The translations under genes were made by a program, and so were the position numbers. Shown here piece after piece: positions 10,449-34,867 of a DNA stretch of 64,000 bases. The number at the start of each line of letters is the position of its first letter. Position 1 is the stretch's first letter. Below the pieces are notes generated by a model that worked only from the letters and a program-made list of their open reading frames with translations, was not told where the DNA came from and made no database searches. The stretch covers positions 33,086 through 97,085 of the forward strand of contig PBFG01000019.1 in the NCBI GenBank assembly GCA_002718585.1, given 5' to 3'. This DNA comes from Fidelibacterota bacterium. GTDB lineage: Bacteria > Fidelibacterota > Marinisomatia > SCGC-AAA003-L08 > D37C17.

Positions 10449-11897
10449 TTAGGTTCCACAAAATGTTTTATAAGTTTCATCAAAGCCATCAGGAGTAGTT
10501 TGAAACCTATCAAGATTTACACCATATTCATACGTATTAGCCATTTGATGTAATATTTTATCAAATTCCTCTTTATTACCGTTTATTGCATTATTTAAAG
10601 CAGATTCTACTAAATGATTTCTTGGAATATAAATGGGATTATTTTTTTTCATTATTATTAGACTATTTTTATCATTTTTAACTCTTTCTTTCCACTTTTT
10701 TAACCAATTTTTAAAATCAGAAGATTGAAATAATAAATCTTTATTTGATTTATTTAATGTTAAACTTAAAAAGGTATTCGTATAATCTGCCCTATGCAAT
10801 TCCATGAGTTCTAATAAATCGTTGATAAATTGCTCATCTGATTTTTCAGGATTTGTTATTCCAATTTTACTAAACATCATGCTATACCAATTATTTGAAA
10901 AATAAGCAGAAAACTCATCTAATATATTTTGAGCTAAATCAATAGCTTTATTCTGATCTTTATGAATGAAAGGTAAAAGAGTACCTGCAAAAACTGATAA
11001 ATTCCAATAAGCTATTTTGTGCTGGTTTCCGAAAGCATATCTACCATGTCTATCAATTGAACTAAAAACGGTTTTAGGATTATATTTATTCATGAACGCG
11101 CAAGGTCCATAATCAATTGTCTCTCCAGTAATAATCATATTATCTGTGTTCATGACTCCATGTATAAATCCAACTCTAATCCAACTAATAACCAAATCAA
11201 TTTGTTTTCTCATAACAGTCTTCAATAAATCAGTGCATGGTGAATCACTACCAGATATATCTGGATAATATCGTTTGATAACATAATCGATAAAATCTTT
11301 AAAATCCTTTTGCGAACAAAAATGTTTTGCGTATTCAAAAGTTCCCACTCTTATATGACTAGATGAAACTCTGCTTAGGATCCCTCCATTATTAATTGTT
11401 TCTCTAAATACACTTTCACCAGTATTAATAACCGCTAAACTTCTGGTGGTCGGAATATTTAAAAAATACATTGACTCACTCATTAAATATTCTCTGAGCA
11501 TTGAACTCAAGGTCGCCCTACCATCACCTGCTCTAGAAAAGGGAGTTTGGCCAGAACCCTTAAGCTGAATATCAAAAAATCTGTTATCTAAAGCTTTTTG
11601 TTCCCCAAGTAAGATTGCTCTACCATCTCCAAGCATTGTAAAATTACCAAATTGATGTCCTGCATAAGCTTGTGCGATGGGATTTGAGTTATTTGGTAGG
11701 ATATTTCCTGACAAATAACCAGTAATCTTACTAACATCATTATTTAGAAATTCTAAATTTAGCTGTTTTGAAAGCTTTTCGTTAAAATATACTAATTTAG
11801 GATTTTTAACTTTAATAGGTTTAATTTTCTTATAGAATGAACTTGGAAGTTCTATATAACTATTTTGAAGGCTCCAGTTTTCGTTTGTTGTTTTCAT
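10449..11897 (-). CDS. selO: Protein adenylyltransferase SelO/YdiU (UPF0061)
   Basis: Motifs AGHQFGNF..LGDGRA, GSGQTPFSRAGDGRA and HGVMNTDNM. It ends ..FCGT with Cys at the antepenultimate position and has no in-frame TGA. Confidence 0.88.
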   Translation of the reverse strand: MKTTNENWSLQNSYIELPSSFYKKIKPIKVKNPKLVYFNEKLSKQLNLEFLNNDVSKITGYLSGNILPNNSNPIAQAYAGHQFGNFTMLGDGRAILLGEQKALDNRFFDIQLKGSGQTPFSRAGDGRATLSSMLREYLMSESMYFLNIPTTRSLAVINTGESVFRETINNGGILSRVSSSHIRVGTFEYAKHFCSQKDFKDFIDYVIKRYYPDISGSDSPCTDLLKTVMRKQIDLVISWIRVGFIHGVMNTDNMIITGETIDYGPCAFMNKYNPKTVFSSIDRHGRYAFGNQHKIAYWNLSVFAGTLLPFIHKDQNKAIDLAQNILDEFSAYFSNNWYSMMFSKIGITNPEKSDEQFINDLLELMELHRADYTNTFLSLTLNKSNKDLLFQSSDFKNWLKKWKERVKNDKNSLIIMKKNNPIYIPRNHLVESALNNAINGNKEEFDKILHQMANTYEYGVNLDRFQTTPDGFDETYKTFCGT

Positions 11898-21761: not shown

Positions 21762-22421
21762 ATGAATAAACTTATTTCTCTATTTATAGTACTTACTTCA
21801 TTGGTCTTTTCACAAGATAGAAGTATTATTTTTAGTACTGGTACACCTGATTCAACATCTGGGTTTTTAATTGATAATACTAATTCTTATGCAAATAGAT
21901 TCTCCGTTAATGTAGATTTTGTTTTAGAGGCTATGAATTTTTTCATGACATCAGAAAACCAGGAAAATTCAAATATTCATATATCAATTAGGGAAGATTT
22001 AAACGGAATACCTGGTGAACTTGTATCTGAATTTTCTGAATGGAACTATACTATTGATTTTGATCATCCATTTAACTACAATCTTATTCAAACCACAAAT
22101 TTGTGCGTTTATCTAGATAGCGGAAATTACTATTGGTTTGTTATAGAGGCAGCTGACAATTTAACTGAAGTTTCATGGATATATTCAAATTCTCCTTTAT
22201 ATCAAATAGCATCAAGCCAAGATTCAGGTATTTCATGGCAAACTGATGTTTCTTATGCTGGTGCTGGTTCAATTTTTGGAGAACAAATATATGTTCAAGA
22301 ATCATCAGAGGGTGATTTGAATTCAGATTTTACAACAAATGTTGTAGATATTGTTTCACTTGTAAGCTACGTACTTGGAGAATCTTCATTTGATCAAGAA
22401 CAGTTAATAATAGCAGATTAA
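21762..22421 (+). CDS. Secreted protein of unknown function ending in a dockerin-type repeat; it terminates at a TAA inside the second dockerin repeat
   Basis: Signal peptide MNKLISLFIVLTSLVFSQ and dockerin repeat GDLNSDFTTNVVDIVSLVSYVLG. The frame continues past the TAA into 22422..23051. Confidence 0.55.
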   Translation: MNKLISLFIVLTSLVFSQDRSIIFSTGTPDSTSGFLIDNTNSYANRFSVNVDFVLEAMNFFMTSENQENSNIHISIREDLNGIPGELVSEFSEWNYTIDFDHPFNYNLIQTTNLCVYLDSGNYYWFVIEAADNLTEVSWIYSNSPLYQIASSQDSGISWQTDVSYAGAGSIFGEQIYVQESSEGDLNSDFTTNVVDIVSLVSYVLGESSFDQEQLIIAD

Positions 22422-22460
22422 AATAGAGACGGTCTTATTAATGTAGTTGATATTGTTGCA

Positions 22461-23051
22461 ATGGTTAGCATTGTTTTGAGTCCACCACTCCAAGTATCTG
22501 ACTTTAACCTGGAAGACATTAATCCTGCATCAAATTACTATAGTCAAGAAATTGGACCTTCATTTTTTTCAGGACAAGTATCAGCTTACTATTTTGGGAA
22601 ACAAGGCTGAACTACATGTAAAGCCCGGTTCGGGATTCTTAATGATTTATATAATGAGTTACTTGCAGAAGGTATAGATGATGTTAAGATAATGGGTATC
22701 AATGGCTTTCAGTACATTGAAGATAGTGTTGATTGTATGATATGTAATGATGAGTGTACCTCTAATACATGTTCATCGGGACCTAGAGTATTATCGTGGT
22801 CTCAAGATTATGATGATGGATTAAATTGTTTAGATGAAAATCAAGGTATATGCGAAGCATTAGATGGCGATGGTGACGTTTGGGAATTAATGGATGCTAC
22901 CTTAAGAGATTTTGTTATAGTTGATAGAAATGGAAATGAATTTGCAAGAGTTAACTTGACTTATAACAACCCTGATCCGACTGAAATTGGAGAATGTACT
23001 GGTAACTATCAAAAAATTAAAGATTTAATTCTTTCAGCCCGCAACAGATAA
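22461..23051 (+). CDS. Thioredoxin-fold protein with in-frame TGA (candidate Sec) in a UxxC motif; true start uncertain (first ATG after the TAA is used here)
   Basis: Same frame as 21762..22421. It reads ..VSAYYFGKQG-TGA-TTCKARFG.. and joins the tracked ORF 22692..23051. It is paralogous to 27683..28342 and 28458..29111. Confidence 0.5.
22621..22640 (+). promoter_or_regulatory. SECIS-like hairpin downstream of TGA 22608
   Basis: AAG-CCCG-GUU-CGGG-(AUU bulge)-CUU. The loop G lies 20 nt after the U of UGA. It is built from GC-rich codons (gcc cgg ttc ggg) in an AT-rich gene. Confidence 0.5.
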
Positions 23052-23131
23052 TTATTGTCTTTTACCTTTATAAAACTTTAGATTAACCAGTCCGAATTAA
23101 CCTATTTAAGTATTAAAGGAGTATAATAAAT

Positions 23132-23776
23132 ATGATAGTAACTAAACCAGCACCTGAATTTAAGACACAGGCTGTTATGCCTGACAATTCAATACAAGAA
23201 GTAAAATTATCTGATTATAAAGGCAAAAAAGTTGTTCTTTTCTTTTATCCTTTAGATTTTACTTTTGTTTGCCCGACAGAATTATTAGCATTTGATAAAA
23301 GACTTTCTGAATTTGAATCTAGAGGCGTTCAAGTTTTAGGTTGTTCTGTTGATTCCAGATGGAGTCATCTTGCCTGGAAAAATACTGATGTAAACAAAGG
23401 TGGTATTGGTAATGTTCAGTATCCAATATTACAAGATTTAGATAAATCAATCGCTAGAAGTTTTGATGTTTTAGTTGGATCAACTCCTGCTACAGTGTAC
23501 ACTCAGGATACAGAAGTGGATACCACTGTTGGGGGTGGTGTTGCACTTAGAGCATCATTTTTAATTGATGAAGAAGGAATAGTTAGGCACGCAGTGATAA
23601 ATGACCTTCCACTTGGAAGAAATATTGATGAAATGGTTAGAATGGTAGATGCTTTAACTCATCATCAAAAACATGGTGAAGTTTGTCCAGCTGGTTGGAA
23701 AGATGGTGATAACGCCATGGAAGAGTCCCCAGATGGAGTTTCAAGTTACCTATCTGATAACGCAGATAATTTATAA
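23132..23776 (+). CDS. Typical 2-Cys peroxiredoxin (AhpC/Prx1 family)
   Basis: Peroxidatic motif FFYPLDFTFVCPTE and resolving motif GEVCPAGW. Strong RBS aaggag. Confidence 0.9.
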   Translation: MIVTKPAPEFKTQAVMPDNSIQEVKLSDYKGKKVVLFFYPLDFTFVCPTELLAFDKRLSEFESRGVQVLGCSVDSRWSHLAWKNTDVNKGGIGNVQYPILQDLDKSIARSFDVLVGSTPATVYTQDTEVDTTVGGGVALRASFLIDEEGIVRHAVINDLPLGRNIDEMVRMVDALTHHQKHGEVCPAGWKDGDNAMEESPDGVSSYLSDNADNL

Positions 23777-23785
23777 GGAGATTTA

Positions 23786-24217
23786 ATGAAAAAAGAAATA
23801 GTATATGCACATTGTGATGGACCTTGCGGAATTTACGATCCTGCAAGTGCTAGAATAGCAGCCGAAGCTGTGCTATCAATGACAAAAAAAATGTTAGAAC
23901 TAAAAGTTCCAGAAGATTCTGAAGCCATGGCTCATTATACAAATACAATGAGTCGATATGCTAGTATTAAAGAAGAAGAAGCTCAAAAATGTAAGGACGA
24001 AGTACTTATTCTTTGGACAGATTTTTTTAAACCTGAACATTTAAGTTCTCATCCAGATTTACATACTTTATTTTGGAATACAGCTAAATTATGTAGTTCT
24101 TGTAAGGTGGAGATTTCCATTGATCATGCAAATGAATTATTAGATCATGTTCATAAGATTCATGATTTATTTTGGTCCGTAAAAAATAGAAAAATTGATT
24201 GGTATACTGCTGGATAG
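23786..24217 (+). CDS. sodN: Nickel superoxide dismutase precursor
   Basis: Ni-hook HCDGPCGIYDP immediately after a short propeptide MKKEIVYA. About 140 aa, four-helix type. Confidence 0.92.
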   Translation: MKKEIVYAHCDGPCGIYDPASARIAAEAVLSMTKKMLELKVPEDSEAMAHYTNTMSRYASIKEEEAQKCKDEVLILWTDFFKPEHLSSHPDLHTLFWNTAKLCSSCKVEISIDHANELLDHVHKIHDLFWSVKNRKIDWYTAG

Positions 24218-24225
24218 ATTAAACA

Positions 24226-24543
24226 ATGGTTGAATTTTTACATTTCTTTGTAAAGGGTAATAGTATGCTACCTGCCCTGAAAGATGGTGATTCGATAAAA
24301 ATGATGAAATTTGATAATAATATTAATATTAATGTTAATGATATTGTCGTTTTTGAACACCCTTTCAAAAAAAAATGTAAATTAATCAAAAGAATAAAAA
24401 AAATAACCAAAGATAATAAAATTTTCGTTCAGGGTGATAATACCAATTACGAATCTAGTAATGACAGCCATAACTTTGGTTACATTAAAAAGAAAAGTTT
24501 AATTGCAATAAGAAAGGAAATAAATGAAATTACTTGCTCCTAA
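24226..24543 (+). CDS. sodX: NiSOD maturation endopeptidase (S26 signal-peptidase-like)
   Basis: VKGNSMLPALKDGD serine protease motif and GDN..S.DS tail. Located directly downstream of sodN. Confidence 0.8.
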   Translation: MVEFLHFFVKGNSMLPALKDGDSIKMMKFDNNININVNDIVVFEHPFKKKCKLIKRIKKITKDNKIFVQGDNTNYESSNDSHNFGYIKKKSLIAIRKEINEITCS

Positions 24544-24900: not shown

Positions 24901-24981
24901 GGAGAGGTGGACAACGGCTGTCGAGCGGTCTTGAAAACCGTCGCCCCTATGGGGTTGCAGGTTCGAATCCTGTCCTCTCCG
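24901..24981 (+). tRNA. tRNA-Ser (anticodon UGA)
   Basis: GGAGAGG acceptor paired with CCUCUCC, anticodon loop CUUGAAA, long variable arm (GCCCCUAUGGGGU) and T-loop GGTTCGAATCC. Confidence 0.88.
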
Positions 24982-24993
24982 CAATAATTCAAT

Positions 24994-27682: not shown

Positions 27683-28342
27683 ATGAAAAGATATATTTTG
27701 ATATTATTATTTTCAAATCTACTTGCAAATGTATTTGAATATTCACTTTTGGATTACAATACGACATCCCCTACCCATCAACTAGATGTTTGGTACCCGG
27801 AATATTCTAATCACATTACAATGCATTATTTTGCAACTCAAGGATGAGCGGGCTGAACCGCAACATTTGGACAGTTGTCCAACTTTCAAGAAGAATTAAA
27901 AAACGATTATGGCTTCGAAAATGTTGTAATCATAGCAATTGGCCAAACTAATATTAGTAGTTTTAATAATAGTTTTTGCGCAAATTCTGATTTACCTCTA
28001 GTCATGGATGAATTTCCTGAGCTTCCAATTAGAGAACAATTTTCGCCTTATGGCGAATCACATGATTTTATAATTGTCGATTATGATGGTAATTATTTAG
28101 ATCACATTAACTTTTTAAGTTTAGGAAATATTGAAAAAAATTATATAATCGACGTACTAGAAGATAATTACAACCAAATAGTTTTGGGTGATGTTAATGG
28201 TGATACATTCGTTAATATTCAAGATGTCATTTTACTCGTTAATATGATACTTAGTAATTCATCTGATAATGTAGATGTAAATGGAGATGGCTCTACTAAT
28301 ATTTTGGATGTTATACAGATAGTTAATATTATTTTAAATTGA
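27683..28342 (+). CDS. Secreted thioredoxin-fold protein with two in-frame TGA codons (candidate UxxU redox motif) and a C-terminal dockerin pair
   Basis: The ATG at 27683 gives MKRYILILLFSNLLANV.. and ITMHYFATQG-TGA-AG-TGA-TATFGQL, in frame with tracked ORF 27875..28342. Dockerin repeats GDVNGDTFVNIQDVILLVNMIL and VDVNGDGSTNILDVIQIVNIIL. Confidence 0.55.
27867..27882 (+). promoter_or_regulatory. SECIS-like hairpin downstream of TGAs 27845 and 27854
   Basis: UUGGAC-AGUU-GUCCAA, a 6 bp stem. The loop G lies 20 nt after the second UGA and 29 nt after the first. Confidence 0.4.
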
Positions 28343-28432: not shown

Positions 28433-28457
28433 ATTAAAAATTTATGGAGAATTTTAT

Positions 28458-29111
28458 ATGAGAGTTTTTTTAATGTTATTAATAACATCTTTTAGTTTTA
28501 GTCAATACGCTTACAGTCTAACTGATAATAATAGTTCATCTGATTATTACCTAGAAAATGTCGGTCCAGAATATTTTGAAAATCAAATAACCATGCATTA
28601 TTTTGGAAGCTTTACATGAGGTCTGTGTAATTCGCGGTTCGCGCAATTAAACACCTTATATGAGTCCTTACTTGATAGTGGATATGACCAAGTTAAACTT
28701 ATTGGAATAGGCTACAGTTATCAATCTAATTCTTACAGTAATTGGTCAAATTCAAATGAATTCTCATCAGTTTGTTATGATGATAGCAACAATCCTACTT
28801 TTAATAGCTGGGGAGCGAGTCAAAGAGATTTTTATGTTTTAGACCACGAAAAGAATCTTGTCCTGGAACAAAATATTTCTGGAGGATTACCTGATAATCT
28901 TGAATCCCTAATCATTAACCTAATAAGCGATATACCAAACGAAATAATTAATGGTGATTTTAACCAAGATGGAGTATTAAATGTAGTAGATGTTGTTTCA
29001 ATTATTAATTTAGTTTTAACTAATCAATATAATGAGATTGCTGATGTTAATAGTGATAATTTATTAAATGTAGTAGATATTGTAATGCTAGTTAATCTAA
29101 TAATATCCTAA
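28458..29111 (+). CDS. Secreted thioredoxin-fold protein with in-frame TGA (candidate Sec, UxxC) and a C-terminal dockerin pair
   Basis: MRVFLMLLITSFSFSQ signal peptide and ITMHYFGSFT-TGA-GLCNSRFAQL. The frame stays open to the TAA at 29109. Dockerin repeats GDFNQDGVLNVVDVVSIINLVL and ADVNSDNLLNVVDIVMLVNLII. The ORF track reports only the part before the TGA. Confidence 0.6.
28629..28648 (+). promoter_or_regulatory. SECIS-like hairpin downstream of TGA 28617
   Basis: AAUU-CGCG-GUU-CGCG-(C bulge)-AAUU. The loop G lies 20 nt after the U of UGA, with the same CGGUUCG core as the hairpin at 22621. Confidence 0.5.
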
Positions 29112-29116
29112 TATTT

Positions 29117-29773
29117 TTATTGATTGTTTAGATCACTGAAATCAATTGTTATATACAATCTTCTGTATTTCTCATCATAATATGGAGATCGATGTACGAG
29201 TCCCTGACCTTTGTTTCCTGACCATAGTTCACCCTTTAACAAAGCAACATCACCTATAGCTAAATGCTTAATATCTGTTTTACTCGAAAATAAGCCATCT
29301 TGGTCTTTACTAAATTTTTGATTAAATTTTAGTTTTCTCCTATCAATTAAATCATTTGGCAGCCATTCTGTACCTGGTCCATAATATGTTGTCAGCAATC
29401 TACATTTTAAATAATCAACATGAAATCTAGGACATGTTGCATTTGTTGAAATACCCATTCTTAACCAAACTTTCTTCAGTTCAAACATATTACAAAATAA
29501 TTCGGATAAATTAGATATATCATTAAATAAAAATATTTTATTTTGAGATTGACCTAATCTATTAACTAGAGCTTCATTTATTTCGTTATACTTGAGAACT
29601 TTTGAAAAGTCAAATTCTAAATTATCATTAATTATTTCTTCTGCACCAAAAGATATTGATTCATCCAATTTCCTTTTCCATAATGAAATATTATTTTTGT
29701 TATCAAAAATTTCTGATAGAACTATGGATTTTCTGTTAAAAATATTTTTTCTTAAAATTGTTTTATTAATCAC
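29117..29773 (-). CDS. Conserved hypothetical protein, DUF1826-like (frequent partner of COG0523 GTPases)
   Basis: Overlaps the upstream COG0523 gene by 4 nt. The family assignment is from memory of the pairing and of CPRFHVD..HRSP-type motifs, and is tentative. Confidence 0.5.
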
Positions 29774-30969
29774 GAAATTTCATTCCATTCAGGAAATGGA
29801 TCATTAAATGTTTCCCAATGTTTTCTACCCATTAATAAGTCATCCGTAGATAATAAACAATCATCAAGGAGTTTAATAATTTTATTTTTTTCTAAACCTT
29901 GACCGATAAAAACTAATTCTTGACGCATGTCACCAAATGGTTCTACCCATTTTTCATCTATAAAATCTAATGTTTCTTGGTCTTCAGGCCAACGTTCTTT
30001 TGGTATCGCTTTCCAAAACATTCCAGCAAAACCATGGTGAGCTATTCCCCCCGCTTGATTCCAACTTCCCGCAAACATGGGCCGTGATGCGAGCCAAAAA
30101 AAACCTTTTGATCTAATTAATTTTCCAGCAATATCTTTACTGTGTAAAAAATTATGAAATTTTTCAGGATAAAAGGGTCTTCGAGCTTCGTAAACAAAAC
30201 TACTTATGCCATACTCTTCTGTTTCTGGTATATGTTCTCCATTCATTTCCTGCATCCATCCGGGTGCTTTTTGAGCTTTTTCAAAATCAAATAATCCAGT
30301 GTTTAAAATCTTATCAATTTTAATTCCTCCGTTTGAAATTGGAATGATTTCAGCATTTGTATTTAAAGTTTTTAAAATAGAAACTAATTTATTTATTTTT
30401 TTCTGATTCACTAAATCAATTTTACTAATTAGAATTATATCAGCAAATTCAACCTGATCGACTAATAGGTCCGCTACACTTCTATGATCATCTTCTCCCA
30501 GTGACTCACCAACTTCTTGAAGATATTTTGCTTCATCATAATCCTTCAAAAAATTTACTGCATCTACAACAGTTACCATTGTATCTAATTTAGATACATC
30601 TGAAAGCGATGTACCATTTTCATCTTCAAATATAAATGTTTCTGCAACTGGTAAAGGTTCAGATATACCCGTTGATTCAATTAATAAATAATCAAATTTA
30701 TTAGATTTAGCTAATTTGGAAACTTCGACTAATAAATCCTCTCTCAAGGTACAACATATACAACCATTACTCATTTCTACTAATTTTTCTTCTTTGTAAT
30801 CAAGTGAAACATCTTTTTGAATCATACTTTGATCTATATTAATTTCACTCATATCATTCACTATAACAGCAACTTTCTTTCCTTCTCGATTATTTAATAC
30901 ATTGGTTAATACTGTTGTTTTTCCTGCTCCTAAAAATCCTGATAGAACAGTTACAGGTAATCTCTCCAT
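29770..30969 (-). CDS. COG0523-family G3E GTPase (CobW/ZigA/YjiA-like zinc metallochaperone)
   Basis: P-loop GFLGAGKTT, metal-binding [10 protein letters not shown] (CxCC), ESTGISEP and a CobW_C-like tail. Confidence 0.88.
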
Positions 30970-31182: not shown

Positions 31183-31872
31183 ATGGAATATTTAACATGG
31201 CTGGTTCCCGGCCACGAAAATTTCTTAGTAAGTTTCTCATTTTGGTTTGCAACAGCAATGATGCTTGCCGCAACAGCCTTTTTTTACGTTGAGAGAAGGG
31301 ACGTTAATGCTAAGTGGAAAACTTCACTTACAGTAGCAATGCTTGTTACAGGAATCGCATTTTGGCATTATTTATATATGACAGATTACTTTTTCGCAAC
31401 AGGTAACTCACCAATCGTCTTAAGATATGTTGATTGGTTAATAACAGTACCATTACAAATTGTAGAATTTTACTTGATACTTGCAGCAGTAACTACAGTA
31501 TCAAAATCATTATTCTGGCAATTATTAGTAGCATCACTTGTGATGTTAGTTGGTGGATTCTTAGGAGAAGCAGGATTAATGGCTAGAATGCCTGCCTTTG
31601 TAATAGGAATGCTTGGTTGGTTTGGAGTCTTATACCTTATATTCATGGGTGAGGCAGCAAAAGCTAACGACGCCAGTGGTAATGAAGCTGGACAAAAAGC
31701 ATTTAGTGCTTTAAAATGGATTGTACTAGTTGGTTGGGCAATGTATCCGATCGGCTACTATTTAGATGGTACAGGACATACAACAGATATCGTTTATAAC
31801 TTTGCTGACTTAGTTAATAAAGCAGCTTTTGGCCTTGTAATTTGGGCTGCAGCTAAATCAGATAAATCATAA
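31183..31872 (+). CDS. Proteorhodopsin, proton-pumping (DTE motif), blue-tuned (Gln at position 105)
   Basis: RYVDWLITVPLQIVEFYLIL gives D97, T101, Q105 and E108 by alignment to green PR. Schiff-base Lys is in FADLVNKAAFGLVIW and His is in AFWHYLYM. Strong RBS aggagg at 31169. Confidence 0.93.
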   Translation: MEYLTWLVPGHENFLVSFSFWFATAMMLAATAFFYVERRDVNAKWKTSLTVAMLVTGIAFWHYLYMTDYFFATGNSPIVLRYVDWLITVPLQIVEFYLILAAVTTVSKSLFWQLLVASLVMLVGGFLGEAGLMARMPAFVIGMLGWFGVLYLIFMGEAAKANDASGNEAGQKAFSALKWIVLVGWAMYPIGYYLDGTGHTTDIVYNFADLVNKAAFGLVIWAAAKSDKS

Positions 31873-31881
31873 ACGCCACCG

Positions 31882-31915
31882 AAAAAGGGAATTCGTTTTT
31901 TGAATTCCCTTTTTC
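31882..31915 (+). terminator. Rho-independent terminator/attenuator after proteorhodopsin
   Basis: AAAAAGGGAATTC-gtttttt-GAATTCCCTTTTT, a perfect 13 bp stem with a T-rich 3' side. Confidence 0.7.
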
Positions 31916-31923
31916 ACTTAACG

Positions 31924-32886
31924 ATGAATTATAAGATTTTAAACCAAAAAATTTCTTTTATATTTCTTCGAGTAACTTTTCTATTATTTGCCATTGCAGC
32001 TGTAGCACCTAATTTTAACAATTTAATACTTAACGACTACTTTTGTTCCTTTCTCATACTGACAATTGGATTATCTCATGGAGCTTTAGATAACCAAAAA
32101 GGTAAAATTGTCTTAGATTTTTTTAAATCCAATAAAATGTCGCTGTTTTATATTGCTTATGTGGCTTTTTCAATTATTGCAATCAGTTGCTGGTATAACT
32201 TTCCAACGATAAGCTTACTGACATTATTAATTATTGGACCCTATCACTTTGGTAAGGATGATTGTGATCTGTTTAAGATTAATAAATTTAGTTTTAGAAA
32301 TATAATTTTTTTTGTTAAGGGCACTGTAGTTATAAGTGCCCCACTTCTGTTTAATTTTAATGAAACAATTGATATATTTAAAATACTTTCATCAGATTCA
32401 AATTTTTTAATATCATCATTATTATACTTAAATGAAAATAATTTAATTTTATTTTTTGTATTATTTGGTTTTATCAGTTCAATATATCTTCCAAGAGATT
32501 TTTCAATTAAATTTTTATTGTACGTTGAATTTACATCTATTATTCTTTTAAACTATTTATTTAAGCCCTATGCAGCATTTACAATATATTTTTGTTTTCT
32601 TCATTCAATGAGGCATATAATTGTCTTGAATAAAAGCTTAAACTTATTAAAACCAAAAAATAAAAAACCAAAAACTTCAGTTTTTAATATATTCAATAAT
32701 TTTTATAAGCATGCATTAAAGTTAACTTTAATTTCATCCTTTATCTTTCTATCATGCATGTATGTGAGTTCAAATCTACTTTACGTTGATGATACTCTAT
32801 TAAAGATAATTTTTCCAGGCTTAGCTGCATTAACTCTACCTCATATAATTTTAGATTTCTTGTATGAAAAAATAAAAGCTTATTAG
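31924..32886 (+). CDS. blh: Brp/Blh-family beta-carotene 15,15'-dioxygenase (retinal synthesis)
   Basis: Polytopic membrane protein with four conserved His contexts (LSHGALD, GPYHFGKDD, FLHSMRH, LPHIILD), directly downstream of the rhodopsin. I prefer the ATG at 31924 because the tracked TTG at 31900 lies inside the terminator stem. Confidence 0.8.
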   Translation: MNYKILNQKISFIFLRVTFLLFAIAAVAPNFNNLILNDYFCSFLILTIGLSHGALDNQKGKIVLDFFKSNKMSLFYIAYVAFSIIAISCWYNFPTISLLTLLIIGPYHFGKDDCDLFKINKFSFRNIIFFVKGTVVISAPLLFNFNETIDIFKILSSDSNFLISSLLYLNENNLILFFVLFGFISSIYLPRDFSIKFLLYVEFTSIILLNYLFKPYAAFTIYFCFLHSMRHIIVLNKSLNLLKPKNKKPKTSVFNIFNNFYKHALKLTLISSFIFLSCMYVSSNLLYVDDTLLKIIFPGLAALTLPHIILDFLYEKIKAY

Positions 32887-33322: not shown

Positions 33323-34867
33323 ATGAAAATTTTACTTCTAAATACAATTATATGTTTTTCTTTATTATCAGCTGCTTTAGTAGATGATGAAATCTCATTA
33401 AAAGTAGCTCAAAATACTTTTATAAAATACCACCCCTCTAAAAATATTGATGAGTTTAATATTAAGAGTATTGATATCATTAAAAATCAAGATGATTCAT
33501 TAATTAAAATTTATCAATTAAACCCTACAGGTTTTATAATGGTATCTCTAGAAGATAAGACACTTCCTGTTCTTGCATATGGTTTTGAATCTAATTTCAA
33601 ATTGGTTGATATGCCAGATAACTTATCTTACATCATTAATTTATATAAAAATCAAATAATAGATGCTAGAAACTCTATTTCTGTCAGATCACAAGAAATA
33701 GAATCAGAATGGAACTCACTAATTACACCAAATAATAATGAAATTGATAGAGAAAGTTCTAGAAATGTAAGTCCACTTATAGATGCTAGATTTGATCAAG
33801 GTGGTGCTTGGAATAATGCTTTAATACAATTTGGCTTTAATGGTCCTGTTGGATGTGTAGCAGTATCTATGGCCCAAATTATGCACTACTGGGAATATCC
33901 AGAGCAAGGATCAGGTTCTAATTCATATGTTGAAGATGATTATGGTATTCTTGAAGCAAATTTTGGTCAAGCATTCTATGATTACAGTAGCATGGCAAAT
34001 ACTTATGCTACTTCTGCTTCTCAATTACTACTTCATCATTCAGGAATTTCGGTTAATATGGACTATGCAAATTCGGGTTCTGGAGCATATGTAACTGGTT
34101 CTTATCCCTCAGCTCAGTATGCATTAGAAACCTATTTTTTATATGATGATGGAGTTTATGCTGTAACAAAAGATAGCTATACAACCTCAGAATTTAGAGA
34201 TTTTCTTATTAATGAGCTAGATAACAATAGACCTATTTTATATAGTGGTTATAGTGATACTTACGGAAATGGTGGACATGCTTGGAATGTTGATGGATAT
34301 CAAGGTAATAGTGTTCATTGTAATTGGGGCTGGGGTGGTTCTAATAATGGATATTTTAATTTAAATACTATGGGTGGTTTTGAAGCAGACCAAACTGCTT
34401 TGATTAATCTAATTCCTCAGTCATATACTAATCCGTTAGCTTTATTTGAATATGAAATTGACGAGATGACTGCTATTTTTATAGACTTATCAGAATTTGT
34501 TAATGAAACCCAAATAAGTAGTTGGAACTGGGATTTTGGCGATGGCAATAGCGTTTCTAATAGCTATAGTTATGCTGAACACTCATATTCTAATCCTGGA
34601 GAATATGAAGTAAAACTTACAGTTACTAATATTTATGGACAAACAGGTGCTGAACATTCTGAGCTTATTCAAATAGGATCTCCTATTCTACCAGGTGATA
34701 TTAATATTGATGAACTAGTTAACATTTTAGATGTAGTAATGTTAATAAACTTTGTTTTGGGTTCAGTTAATCCTAGTGATGCAGAATTCAACTCTGGTGA
34801 TTATAATTTAGATGGTTTTCTAAATGTCCTAGATGTTGTATTGATTATTAACTTAATCCTTGATTAG
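33323..34867 (+). CDS. Secreted C10-family cysteine peptidase (streptopain-like) with Spi-type prodomain, PKD domain and C-terminal dockerin pair
   Basis: Catalytic Cys in GCVAVSMAQIMHYW and His in GGHAWNVDGY. PKD signature WNWDFGDGN...YEVKLTVTN. Dockerin repeats GDINIDELVNILDVVMLINFVLG and GDYNLDGFLNVLDVVLIINLIL. Confidence 0.85.
   Translation: MKILLLNTIICFSLLSAALVDDEISLKVAQNTFIKYHPSKNIDEFNIKSIDIIKNQDDSLIKIYQLNPTGFIMVSLEDKTLPVLAYGFESNFKLVDMPDNLSYIINLYKNQIIDARNSISVRSQEIESEWNSLITPNNNEIDRESSRNVSPLIDARFDQGGAWNNALIQFGFNGPVGCVAVSMAQIMHYWEYPEQGSGSNSYVEDDYGILEANFGQAFYDYSSMANTYATSASQLLLHHSGISVNMDYANSGSGAYVTGSYPSAQYALETYFLYDDGVYAVTKDSYTTSEFRDFLINELDNNRPILYSGYSDTYGNGGHAWNVDGYQGNSVHCNWGWGGSNNGYFNLNTMGGFEADQTALINLIPQSYTNPLALFEYEIDEMTAIFIDLSEFVNETQISSWNWDFGDGNSVSNSYSYAEHSYSNPGEYEVKLTVTNIYGQTGAEHSELIQIGSPILPGDINIDELVNILDVVMLINFVLGSVNPSDAEFNSGDYNLDGFLNVLDVVLIINLILD

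Follow-up and report, generated by a model that had tools for sequence, protein, structure and literature searches.

We examined a 64,000-nucleotide stretch of contig PBFG01000019.1 (assembly GCA_002718585.1), referred to here as the window, and in particular a gene within it whose reading frame is interrupted by a TGA codon. This gene, L3 (locus 3), is one of three paralogues (L1, L2, and L3) in a Marinimicrobia (SAR406) genome, and its family is the marine one known as "Prx-like 2" or TUGYCR-type. The in-frame TGA and the hairpin that follows it are confirmed features of the DNA, and the TGA very probably specifies selenocysteine (Sec, U) in the active site of a predicted exported thioredoxin-fold protein.

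The L3 gene and its in-frame TGA

L3 begins at the ATG at 28458, and its frame continues past the TGA at 28617-28619 and stays open until the TAA at 29109-29111 (Table 1). The start methionine is shared by the database orthologues (MRVFLMLL), and two 217-residue database counterparts, P0001 and P0271, show complete or 99% identity to the window protein, with W where the window has TGA. Within the flanking peptide, ITMHYFGSFT-(TGA)-GLCNSRFAQL, the TGA occupies the position at which distant homologues have the first Cys of a CxxC motif, giving a Sec/Cys pair at this site; seven such CxxC homologues (P0168, P0189, P0202, P0207, P0218, P0225, and P0242) occur among the 50%-identity representatives.

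An earlier, sequence-only reading of this DNA had proposed that the frame extends beyond 28619 to the TAA, that it encodes a thioredoxin-fold body and two dockerin repeats, and that the context of the TGA lines up residue for residue with that of L1. Translation confirms the first of these proposals. The second is borne out for the thioredoxin-fold body by a match to the NCBIfam model NF053656 (E 8.6e-23); that the C-terminal repeats are dockerins is probable, with two DxNxDxxxNxxD repeats visible and a match to Dockerin_1 that lies below its cut-off (E 7e-4). The third agrees with the alignment of L1, L2, and L3, which is gapless around the motif at an overall identity of about 31%. The G+C content of the window is 28.7%, and a scan for promoters and terminators around L2 and L3 gave signals no stronger than those of shuffled sequences.

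Table 1. Features of L3 and its paralogues, in window coordinates.
Feature	Position	Strand	Description and basis
Paralogue L1	21762..23051	+	N-terminal domain, dockerin, and UxxC domain; UGA 22608-10; hairpin CCCG-GUU-CGGG 22624-34
Paralogue L2 (UxxU)	27683..28342	+	UGA 27845-47 and 27854-56; hairpin UUGGAC-AGUU-GUCCAA 27867-27882
GGAG, Shine-Dalgarno-like	28446..28449	+	8 nt 5' of the ATG; read from sequence
L3, predicted selenoprotein gene	28458..29111	+	217 codons including UGA (Sec54), then TAA; translation
Predicted signal peptide (MRVFLMLLITSFSFSQ)	28458..28505	+	basic n-region, hydrophobic core, small-residue c-region; judged from the sequence
Thioredoxin-fold redox domain, residues 18-141	28509..28880	+	NF053656, Thioredoxin_8, Foldseek
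UGA, very probably selenocysteine (U54)	28617..28619	+	position 1 of the U-G-L-C redox motif; TGA in 49/49 loci, Cys in distant homologues, U in Global Ocean Sampling (GOS) Dataset S1
TGT, Cys57	28626..28628	+	resolving residue of UxxC; TGY kept in all UxxC-type loci
Possible 2-bp basal extension of hairpin	28625..28652	+	28625-26 with 28651-52
Selenocysteine insertion sequence (SECIS)-like hairpin AAUUCGCG-GUU-CGCG-(C)-AAUU	28629..28648	+	stem AAUU-CGCG, GUU loop, C bulge; RNAfold, covariation, rare codons
Predicted type I dockerin, two repeats (residues 166-215)	28953..29102	+	two DxNxDxxxNxxD repeats visible; Pfam Dockerin_1

Conservation of the TGA and selection on the downstream frame

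Related loci were collected by searching one representative genome per species for the peptide pattern upstream of the TGA, with the codon itself excluded. The matches comprise 37 species-level loci, all from metagenome-assembled genomes and single amplified genomes of Marinimicrobia/SAR406, the single-cell genome SCGC AAA003-L08 among them; with 12 metagenome contigs they make up the 49 related loci considered here. The first motif position is TGA in every one (37/37 genome loci and 12/12 metagenome loci). At the second motif position, 12 of the genome loci have TGY (the UxxC type) and 25 have another TGA (the UxxU type). Two independent metagenome contigs, L038 and L039, bear a copy of L3 identical to that in the window.

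An 86%-identical orthologue (L040) served for comparison. Over the 95 codons 3' of the TGA, 27 of the differences from it are synonymous and 8 nonsynonymous, corresponding to synonymous (dS) and nonsynonymous (dN) rates of 0.76 and 0.036 and a dN/dS of 0.047; upstream of the TGA, the pattern of selection is similar. A dN/dS this low after the TGA implies that the downstream frame is translated and is under strong purifying selection.

A conserved hairpin 3' of the UGA

The L3 hairpin begins 12 nt past the UGA, and the G of its loop (28637) lies 20 nt after the U of the UGA (28617), the same distance as in L1 (22628 and 22608). The 7-mer CGGTTCG has only two copies on both strands of the window, each exactly 18 nt after the in-frame TGA of a UxxC gene (L1 and L3); by chance, 0.21 copies of the 7-mer and 0.00 of TGA-N15-CGGTTCG would be expected in the window. 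Both the common spacing of the CGGUUCG hairpin in L1 and L3 and the common position of the loop G had been pointed out in the sequence-only reading, and both hold. Its claim of a shared architecture stands for the 4-bp G/C stem and the GUU loop, which L1 also has, but not for the lower A/U stem: RNAfold gives L1 the CCCG/CGGG stem of 4 bp only, and the lower stem and C bulge are specific to the locus-3 subclade.

Across 14 UxxC loci, the core CGGUUCG is invariant, the 4-bp core and loop are fixed in position, and the loop and two closing pairs are invariant in position. Pair 24-32 is CG in six of these sequences, GC in four, UA in two, and UG in two, and pair 23-33 occurs as five pair types. 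The covariation score of the UxxC alignment was reached by none of 500 shuffles, and pairing is 86% versus 16-50% in slid controls. Within the locus-3 subclade (11 distinct sequences), the 8-bp stem with its bulged C is 94% paired, versus 23-50% in slid controls, and three stem pairs have changed on both sides. One compensatory change is doubly synonymous: Asn AAT and Gln CAA become AAC and CAG, turning a U-A pair of the lower stem into C-G. Compensatory changes, for which the sequence-only reading had suggested testing the stems, are present among the UxxC loci. Below the stem, a 2-bp extension is possible, with columns 15-42 being 100% paired in four types (GC, GU, UA, AU) and pair 16-41 an invariant U-A. 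The basal pairing that includes the UGA itself in the minimum free energy structure from RNAfold was rejected, as it is not conserved.

The codons that make up the L3 stem, TCG CGG TTC GCG, are rare in this genome segment: TCG accounts for 3.3% of Ser codons, CGG for 0.4% of Arg codons (2/499), TTC for 12.7% of Phe codons, and GCG for 3.5% of Ala codons. AGA supplies 72% of Arg codons, and all UxxC-type loci use CGG at the hairpin. The covariation, together with codons that are otherwise nearly absent, indicates that the hairpin is under selection as RNA.

Paralogues L1 and L2

L1 carries the motif YYFGKQG-(TGA)-TTCKARFG at its TGA (22608). It is the sole paralogue that scores above the 100-bit cut-off of NF053656 (114.5 bits; L2, at 72.2 bits, is below) and the only one with a match, albeit a weak one, to Pfam SelP_N (E 0.013; L2 and L3 have none at E<=1). 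The window copy of L1 also contains an in-frame TAA (22419-22421) within its second dockerin repeat (…IIAD-(TAA)-NRDGLINVVD…), at a site where orthologues have Ile (P0005, "LLADINRDG"; a GOS read, "YADINSDG"). The TAA may stem from an assembly error, or the copy may be split or a pseudogene; if real, the TAA would leave the Sec domain without a signal peptide.

L2 has two UGAs 9 nt apart in the motif HYFATQG-(TGA)-AG-(TGA)-TATFG, and both are kept in 26/26 loci. The UxxU paralogues have lost the Arg-Phe codons and have a different hairpin 9 nt further downstream than in the UxxC genes. This hairpin (UUGGRC-AGUU-GUCCAA) is 100% paired in 22 distinct sequences, with three pairs changed on both sides. 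Its loop G in L2 (27874) lies 29 nt downstream of the first UGA and 20 nt downstream of the second, counted from the U in each case, and a single SECIS apparently serves both codons. Another candidate, a small hairpin around the second UGA of L2 (27848-61), was rejected because only 60% of it is paired across loci. The tandem order of L2 followed by L3 is shared by the window, L038, and the GOS read JCVI_READ_1092963166880, the two open reading frames (ORFs) of which are the orthologues of L3 and L2.

Domains and predicted fold of the L3 protein

An AlphaFold2 model of L3, built from 14 homologues, has a mean predicted local distance difference test score (pLDDT) of 74.9. It shows a detached N-terminal helix (residues 2-12) and two helices in the dockerin region (176-187 and 205-216, pLDDT 85-91). 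Residue 54 lies between a strand (44-51) and a helix (55-73), so that U54-x-x-C57 sits at the N-terminus of helix 1, which would be the customary CxxC site of thioredoxin-fold enzymes. The best Protein Data Bank matches found with Foldseek are glutathione peroxidase (GPx), TlpA, ResA, DsbE, and CcmG, all at a probability of 1.0, with E values of 6.5e-6 to 1e-3, target-normalized TM scores of 0.53-0.57, and identities of 8-18%.

Decoding of the UGA

We consider it very probable that the UGA at 28617 is decoded as Sec, that the hairpin at +12 to +31 recruits SelB and Sec-tRNA(Sec) for this, and that the product is an exported, dockerin-tethered oxidoreductase with a U-G-L-C active site. That the TGA is the Sec codon of a UxxC selenoprotein had been the central proposal of the sequence-only reading, and every line of sequence evidence that could be examined here agrees with it. 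Several results weigh on the other side. No selA, selB, selD, or tRNA-Sec gene was found in the 64-kb window or the 49 related loci (about 220 kb), and ARAGORN found no tRNA-Sec in either. The hairpin is short and by itself barely more stable than shuffled sequences (core, -5.9 kcal/mol, z -1.4; 43-nt context, -12.6 kcal/mol, z -2.6, equaled by 4/200 shuffles), and it had no match to the SECIS families of Rfam at gathering score or E<=10. The domain matches of L3 also fall short of curated thresholds: 80.9 bits over residues 18-141 against the 100-bit cut-off of NF053656 (redoxin_TUGYCR), 22.8 bits (E 1e-4) against 27 for Pfam Thioredoxin_8, and 20.2 bits, just below 22.9, for Dockerin_1, where L2 reaches 32.5 bits. 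L3 is therefore a significant relative of NF053656 rather than a member by the curated rule, and its motif, T-U-G-L-C-N, has only T-U-G-x-C in common with the T-U-G-Y-C-R of the model.

Among the alternatives, the one that fares best, though we think it very improbable, is that the UGA is read through independently of Sec machinery, with the hairpin stimulating insertion of Cys or Trp by a near-cognate tRNA. The lack of Sec genes in the window and related loci would fit such a mechanism, as would an earlier survey that detected SelD in three SAR406 single-cell genomes and classed it as "orphan," the organisms being listed without selenoprotein genes or any other selenium trait (Peng et al. 2016, PMC5029168). 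Single-cell genomes are incomplete, however, and the "orphan" label may reflect missing contigs, while the presence of SelD in SAR406 implies the use of selenophosphate. Retention of UGA over TGY across deep divergence is also hard to explain if Cys were inserted, and the L3 hairpin has the features of bacterial SECIS elements, which lie directly 3' of the UGA and have an apical loop that is small and includes a G (PMC1088965).

Even less probable is a change of the genetic code, in which UGA would mean Trp (code 4) or Gly (code 25) and position 54 would be an ordinary sense codon. The very low G+C content is shared with many lineages that have reassigned UGA, and the database proteins P0001-P0120 show W at the UGA sites. 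The code is nevertheless evidently not reassigned, because 12 of the window's 59 large ORFs end in TGA and its long ORFs encode Trp by TGG throughout (244/244). In-frame TGAs are confined to the CxxC-aligned positions of the L1/L2/L3 family; a scan of the window for other TGA-bridged coding frames gave none that is credible, the remaining same-frame junctions being adjacent genes. Trp would moreover make no biochemical sense in a CxxC active site, where the homologues have Cys.

The W residues themselves can be traced to gene calling. The public proteins P0001-P0120 and P0270-P0281 come in two wrong forms, Trp-containing code-4 calls and fragments (53, 82, 159, and 162 aa), other gene callers having broken the L3 gene into pieces of 53, 82, and 162 aa. 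P0271, from contig MDTD01176527 (locus L038), has the sequence of the window protein with W at position 54, where the codon in L038 is TGA, so W stands for TGA. In P0003, another code-4 call, translation continues across the genuine TGA stop of L2 into noncoding sequence. Many of the 50%-identity representatives start just after the motif (TGA-split calls), others show W (code-4 calls), and none of the database family members that were read has a descriptive source name. Large public protein collections thus misrepresent these selenoprotein genes as Trp artifacts or fragments.

We give almost no weight to the idea that L3 is a pseudogene or contains an assembly or sequencing error, the TGA being a recent nonsense change (e.g., TGT to TGA) and the downstream frame decaying. 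TGA is a single substitution away from TGT or TGC, and L1 has its own unexplained in-frame TAA at 22419, but the L3 codon is TGA in 49/49 loci from different species and independent assemblies, shares its position with paralogues of about 31% identity, and is followed by a frame with a dN/dS of 0.047 and a covarying hairpin at a fixed distance. The sequence-only reading had made the same argument from paralogues that keep the stop codon, the motif, and the RNA structure, and these data uphold it. It is just as hard to credit that the G/C-rich hairpin is a by-product of the Arg-Phe pair or a regulatory or pausing element in place of a Sec signal: the stem is short and every UxxC member conserves Arg-Phe in its protein, but neither accounts for the uniform use of a CGG codon this rare, for synonymous compensatory changes in the lower stem, or for UxxU paralogues that lack Arg-Phe and have another hairpin, again 20 nt after a UGA.

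Other features of the window

Candidates for Sec genes in the window were considered and set aside. Weak selB-like matches from tblastn searches of the window and related loci with Escherichia coli SelA, SelB, and SelD are TypA/BipA according to NCBIfam, and the size-matched window ORFs are PheS, acetoacetate-CoA ligase, lipoamide dehydrogenase, E2, SelO/YdiU, leucyl aminopeptidase, and heme A synthase. The SelO/YdiU homologue (10449-11897, minus strand; NF000658, 495 bits) is a protein adenylyltransferase unrelated to Sec machinery, and its frame is uninterrupted, with no in-frame TGA. A tRNA-Ser with anticodon UGA (24901-24982) was rejected as a tRNA-Sec, since it reads UCA. Its Rfam score is unusually low (40.7 bits), and the same tRNA pair recurs in locus L008, at a distance of 2 kb upstream from the L3 orthologue there.

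L1 lies in an antioxidant cluster (21762-24543) with a Cys-type peroxiredoxin (Prx; 23132-23776, FTFVCPTE), a Ni superoxide dismutase (Ni-SOD; 23786-24217), and a signal-peptidase-family gene (Pfam S26/S24; 24226-24543), a neighborhood that suggests a role in oxidant defense. Converging on L3, with stop codons 5 nt apart, are genes for a DUF1826 protein and a CobW/COG0523 GTPase (29117-30969, minus strand). A Sec-containing family related to CobW exists; the copy here is the Cys form (GCICC) and has no TGA. Further downstream are a rhodopsin gene (Bac_rhodopsin, E 4e-47) and then a gene for beta-carotene 15,15'-dioxygenase, an enzyme of retinal synthesis (31183-32886), which fits a photoheterotroph of the sunlit ocean. 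A C10-family cysteine peptidase (33323-34867) has a PKD domain and, like L3, a C-terminal dockerin. Secreted proteins that are unrelated to one another thus carry dockerins in this genome, where the domain seems to serve generally as a display tag.

Proposed mechanism and function

When a ribosome reaches the UGA of L3, the hairpin at 28629-48, with its apical GUU loop and G at +20, would serve as a bacterial SECIS, bringing SelB·GTP·Sec-tRNA(Sec) to the A site; this complex would outcompete release factor 2 (RF2) and insert Sec54. The predicted product is an exported protein of 217 residues comprising a signal peptide, a thioredoxin fold of the TlpA/ResA/GPx class, and a C-terminal type I dockerin. 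In its active site, the selenol of U54 would make the nucleophilic attack, and Cys57 would act as the resolving residue.

Through its dockerin, the protein is probably held at the cell surface or in the periplasm. Judging from the model, L3 is most likely an extracytoplasmic selenol/thiol oxidoreductase, acting as a scavenger of peroxide or other oxidants or as a disulfide reductase; this redox activity is predicted from the fold and from the position of L1 beside Prx, Ni-SOD, and signal-peptidase-family (S26/S24) genes. The dockerin tag and the antioxidant neighborhood of L1 point to oxidant defense at the cell surface or in the periplasm. The SelB-dependent decoding, the export and surface tethering, and the redox function of L3 are all things that we infer.

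The link of the family to Marinimicrobia suggests that the orphan SelD of SAR406 serves Sec synthesis. A broader proposal, which we put forward tentatively and regard as somewhat doubtful, is that Marinimicrobia are Sec users that routinely have several exported, dockerin-tagged thioredoxin-fold enzymes of the UxxC and UxxU types. If it were true, the orphan SelD would gain a purpose, selenoenzymes would be found on the cell surface of an uncultured ocean lineage that is among the most abundant, and replacement of the second Cys by Sec would have been accompanied by a 9-nt move of the SECIS hairpin.

Comparison with known systems

TlpA, ResA, DsbE, CcmG, and the glutathione peroxidases resemble L3 in that they have an export signal and place their active-site dyad where helix 1 begins, at its N-terminus, but differ from it in having Cys for Sec and no dockerin tail, and share 8-18% identity with it. 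The SECIS of E. coli fdhF is a SelB-dependent stem-loop in the coding region just 3' of the UGA, with a conserved loop G at about +22. The L3 stem-loop is also in the coding region 3' of its UGA and holds its loop G at a fixed distance (+20), but its stem is far shorter, amounting to 4 GC and 4 AU pairs plus a bulge, its loop is GUU, and its binding to SelB is predicted. SelL, reportedly described by Shchedrina et al. (2007, PNAS), is a family of UxxU diselenide selenoproteins of the PRXL2 type. L2 resembles it in the arrangement of UGAs 9 nt apart at a thioredoxin-fold CxxC site with, apparently, one SECIS in the coding region; L3 has a single Sec.

The family itself is already known. The marine "Prx-like 2" selenoproteins were described from the GOS metagenome (Zhang and Gladyshev 2008, PLoS Genet, PMC2398784) as having a UxxC motif, with 99 Sec sequences, 100 Cys homologues, and several UxxU members, low similarity to pfam04592 (PF04592, SelP_N), fusions with unknown N-terminal domains, and neighboring Prx genes. 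L1, L2, and L3 share with that family the UxxC motif, a minority UxxU form, the neighboring Prx, and the N-terminal fusions. The sequences labeled "Prx-like 2" in Dataset S1 of that study match L3 at 79% over 62 aa (…ITMHYFGSFTURLCNSRFAQL…), with U at the Sec site, L2 at 96% over 167 aa (…HYFATQGUAGuTATFGQL…), and L1 at 69% over 209 aa (…YYFGKQGUTTCRSRFG…). All three paralogues also match the whole domain of NF053656.1, "TUGYCR motif thioredoxin fold (seleno)protein," with Sec at the identical motif position, the L3 and L2 motifs (T-U-G-L-C-N and G-U-A-G-U-T) departing from the name and both scores lying below the 100-bit cut-off. Because orthologues of L1, L2, and L3 are listed in Dataset S1, and because a curated NCBI model covers the family published in 2008, the finding is a correct rediscovery. 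Nothing is gained from it as the call of a selenoprotein that was not known before, but it validates the recognition of Sec recoding from raw sequence by the first-stage reader.

The 2008 account stated that a strong homologue was absent from all sequenced prokaryotic genomes, whereas the family maps here to Marinimicrobia/SAR406 genomes. Dockerin is not mentioned in the main text of PMC2398784 or in the supplements that were consulted, and the literature searched, an incomplete set, held no report that links Marinimicrobia to selenoproteins or notes the dockerin fusion. Relative to the published family, then, what may be new are the Marinimicrobia host, the dockerin tags, the rendering of UGA as Trp in public databases, and the 9-nt shift of the UxxU hairpin.

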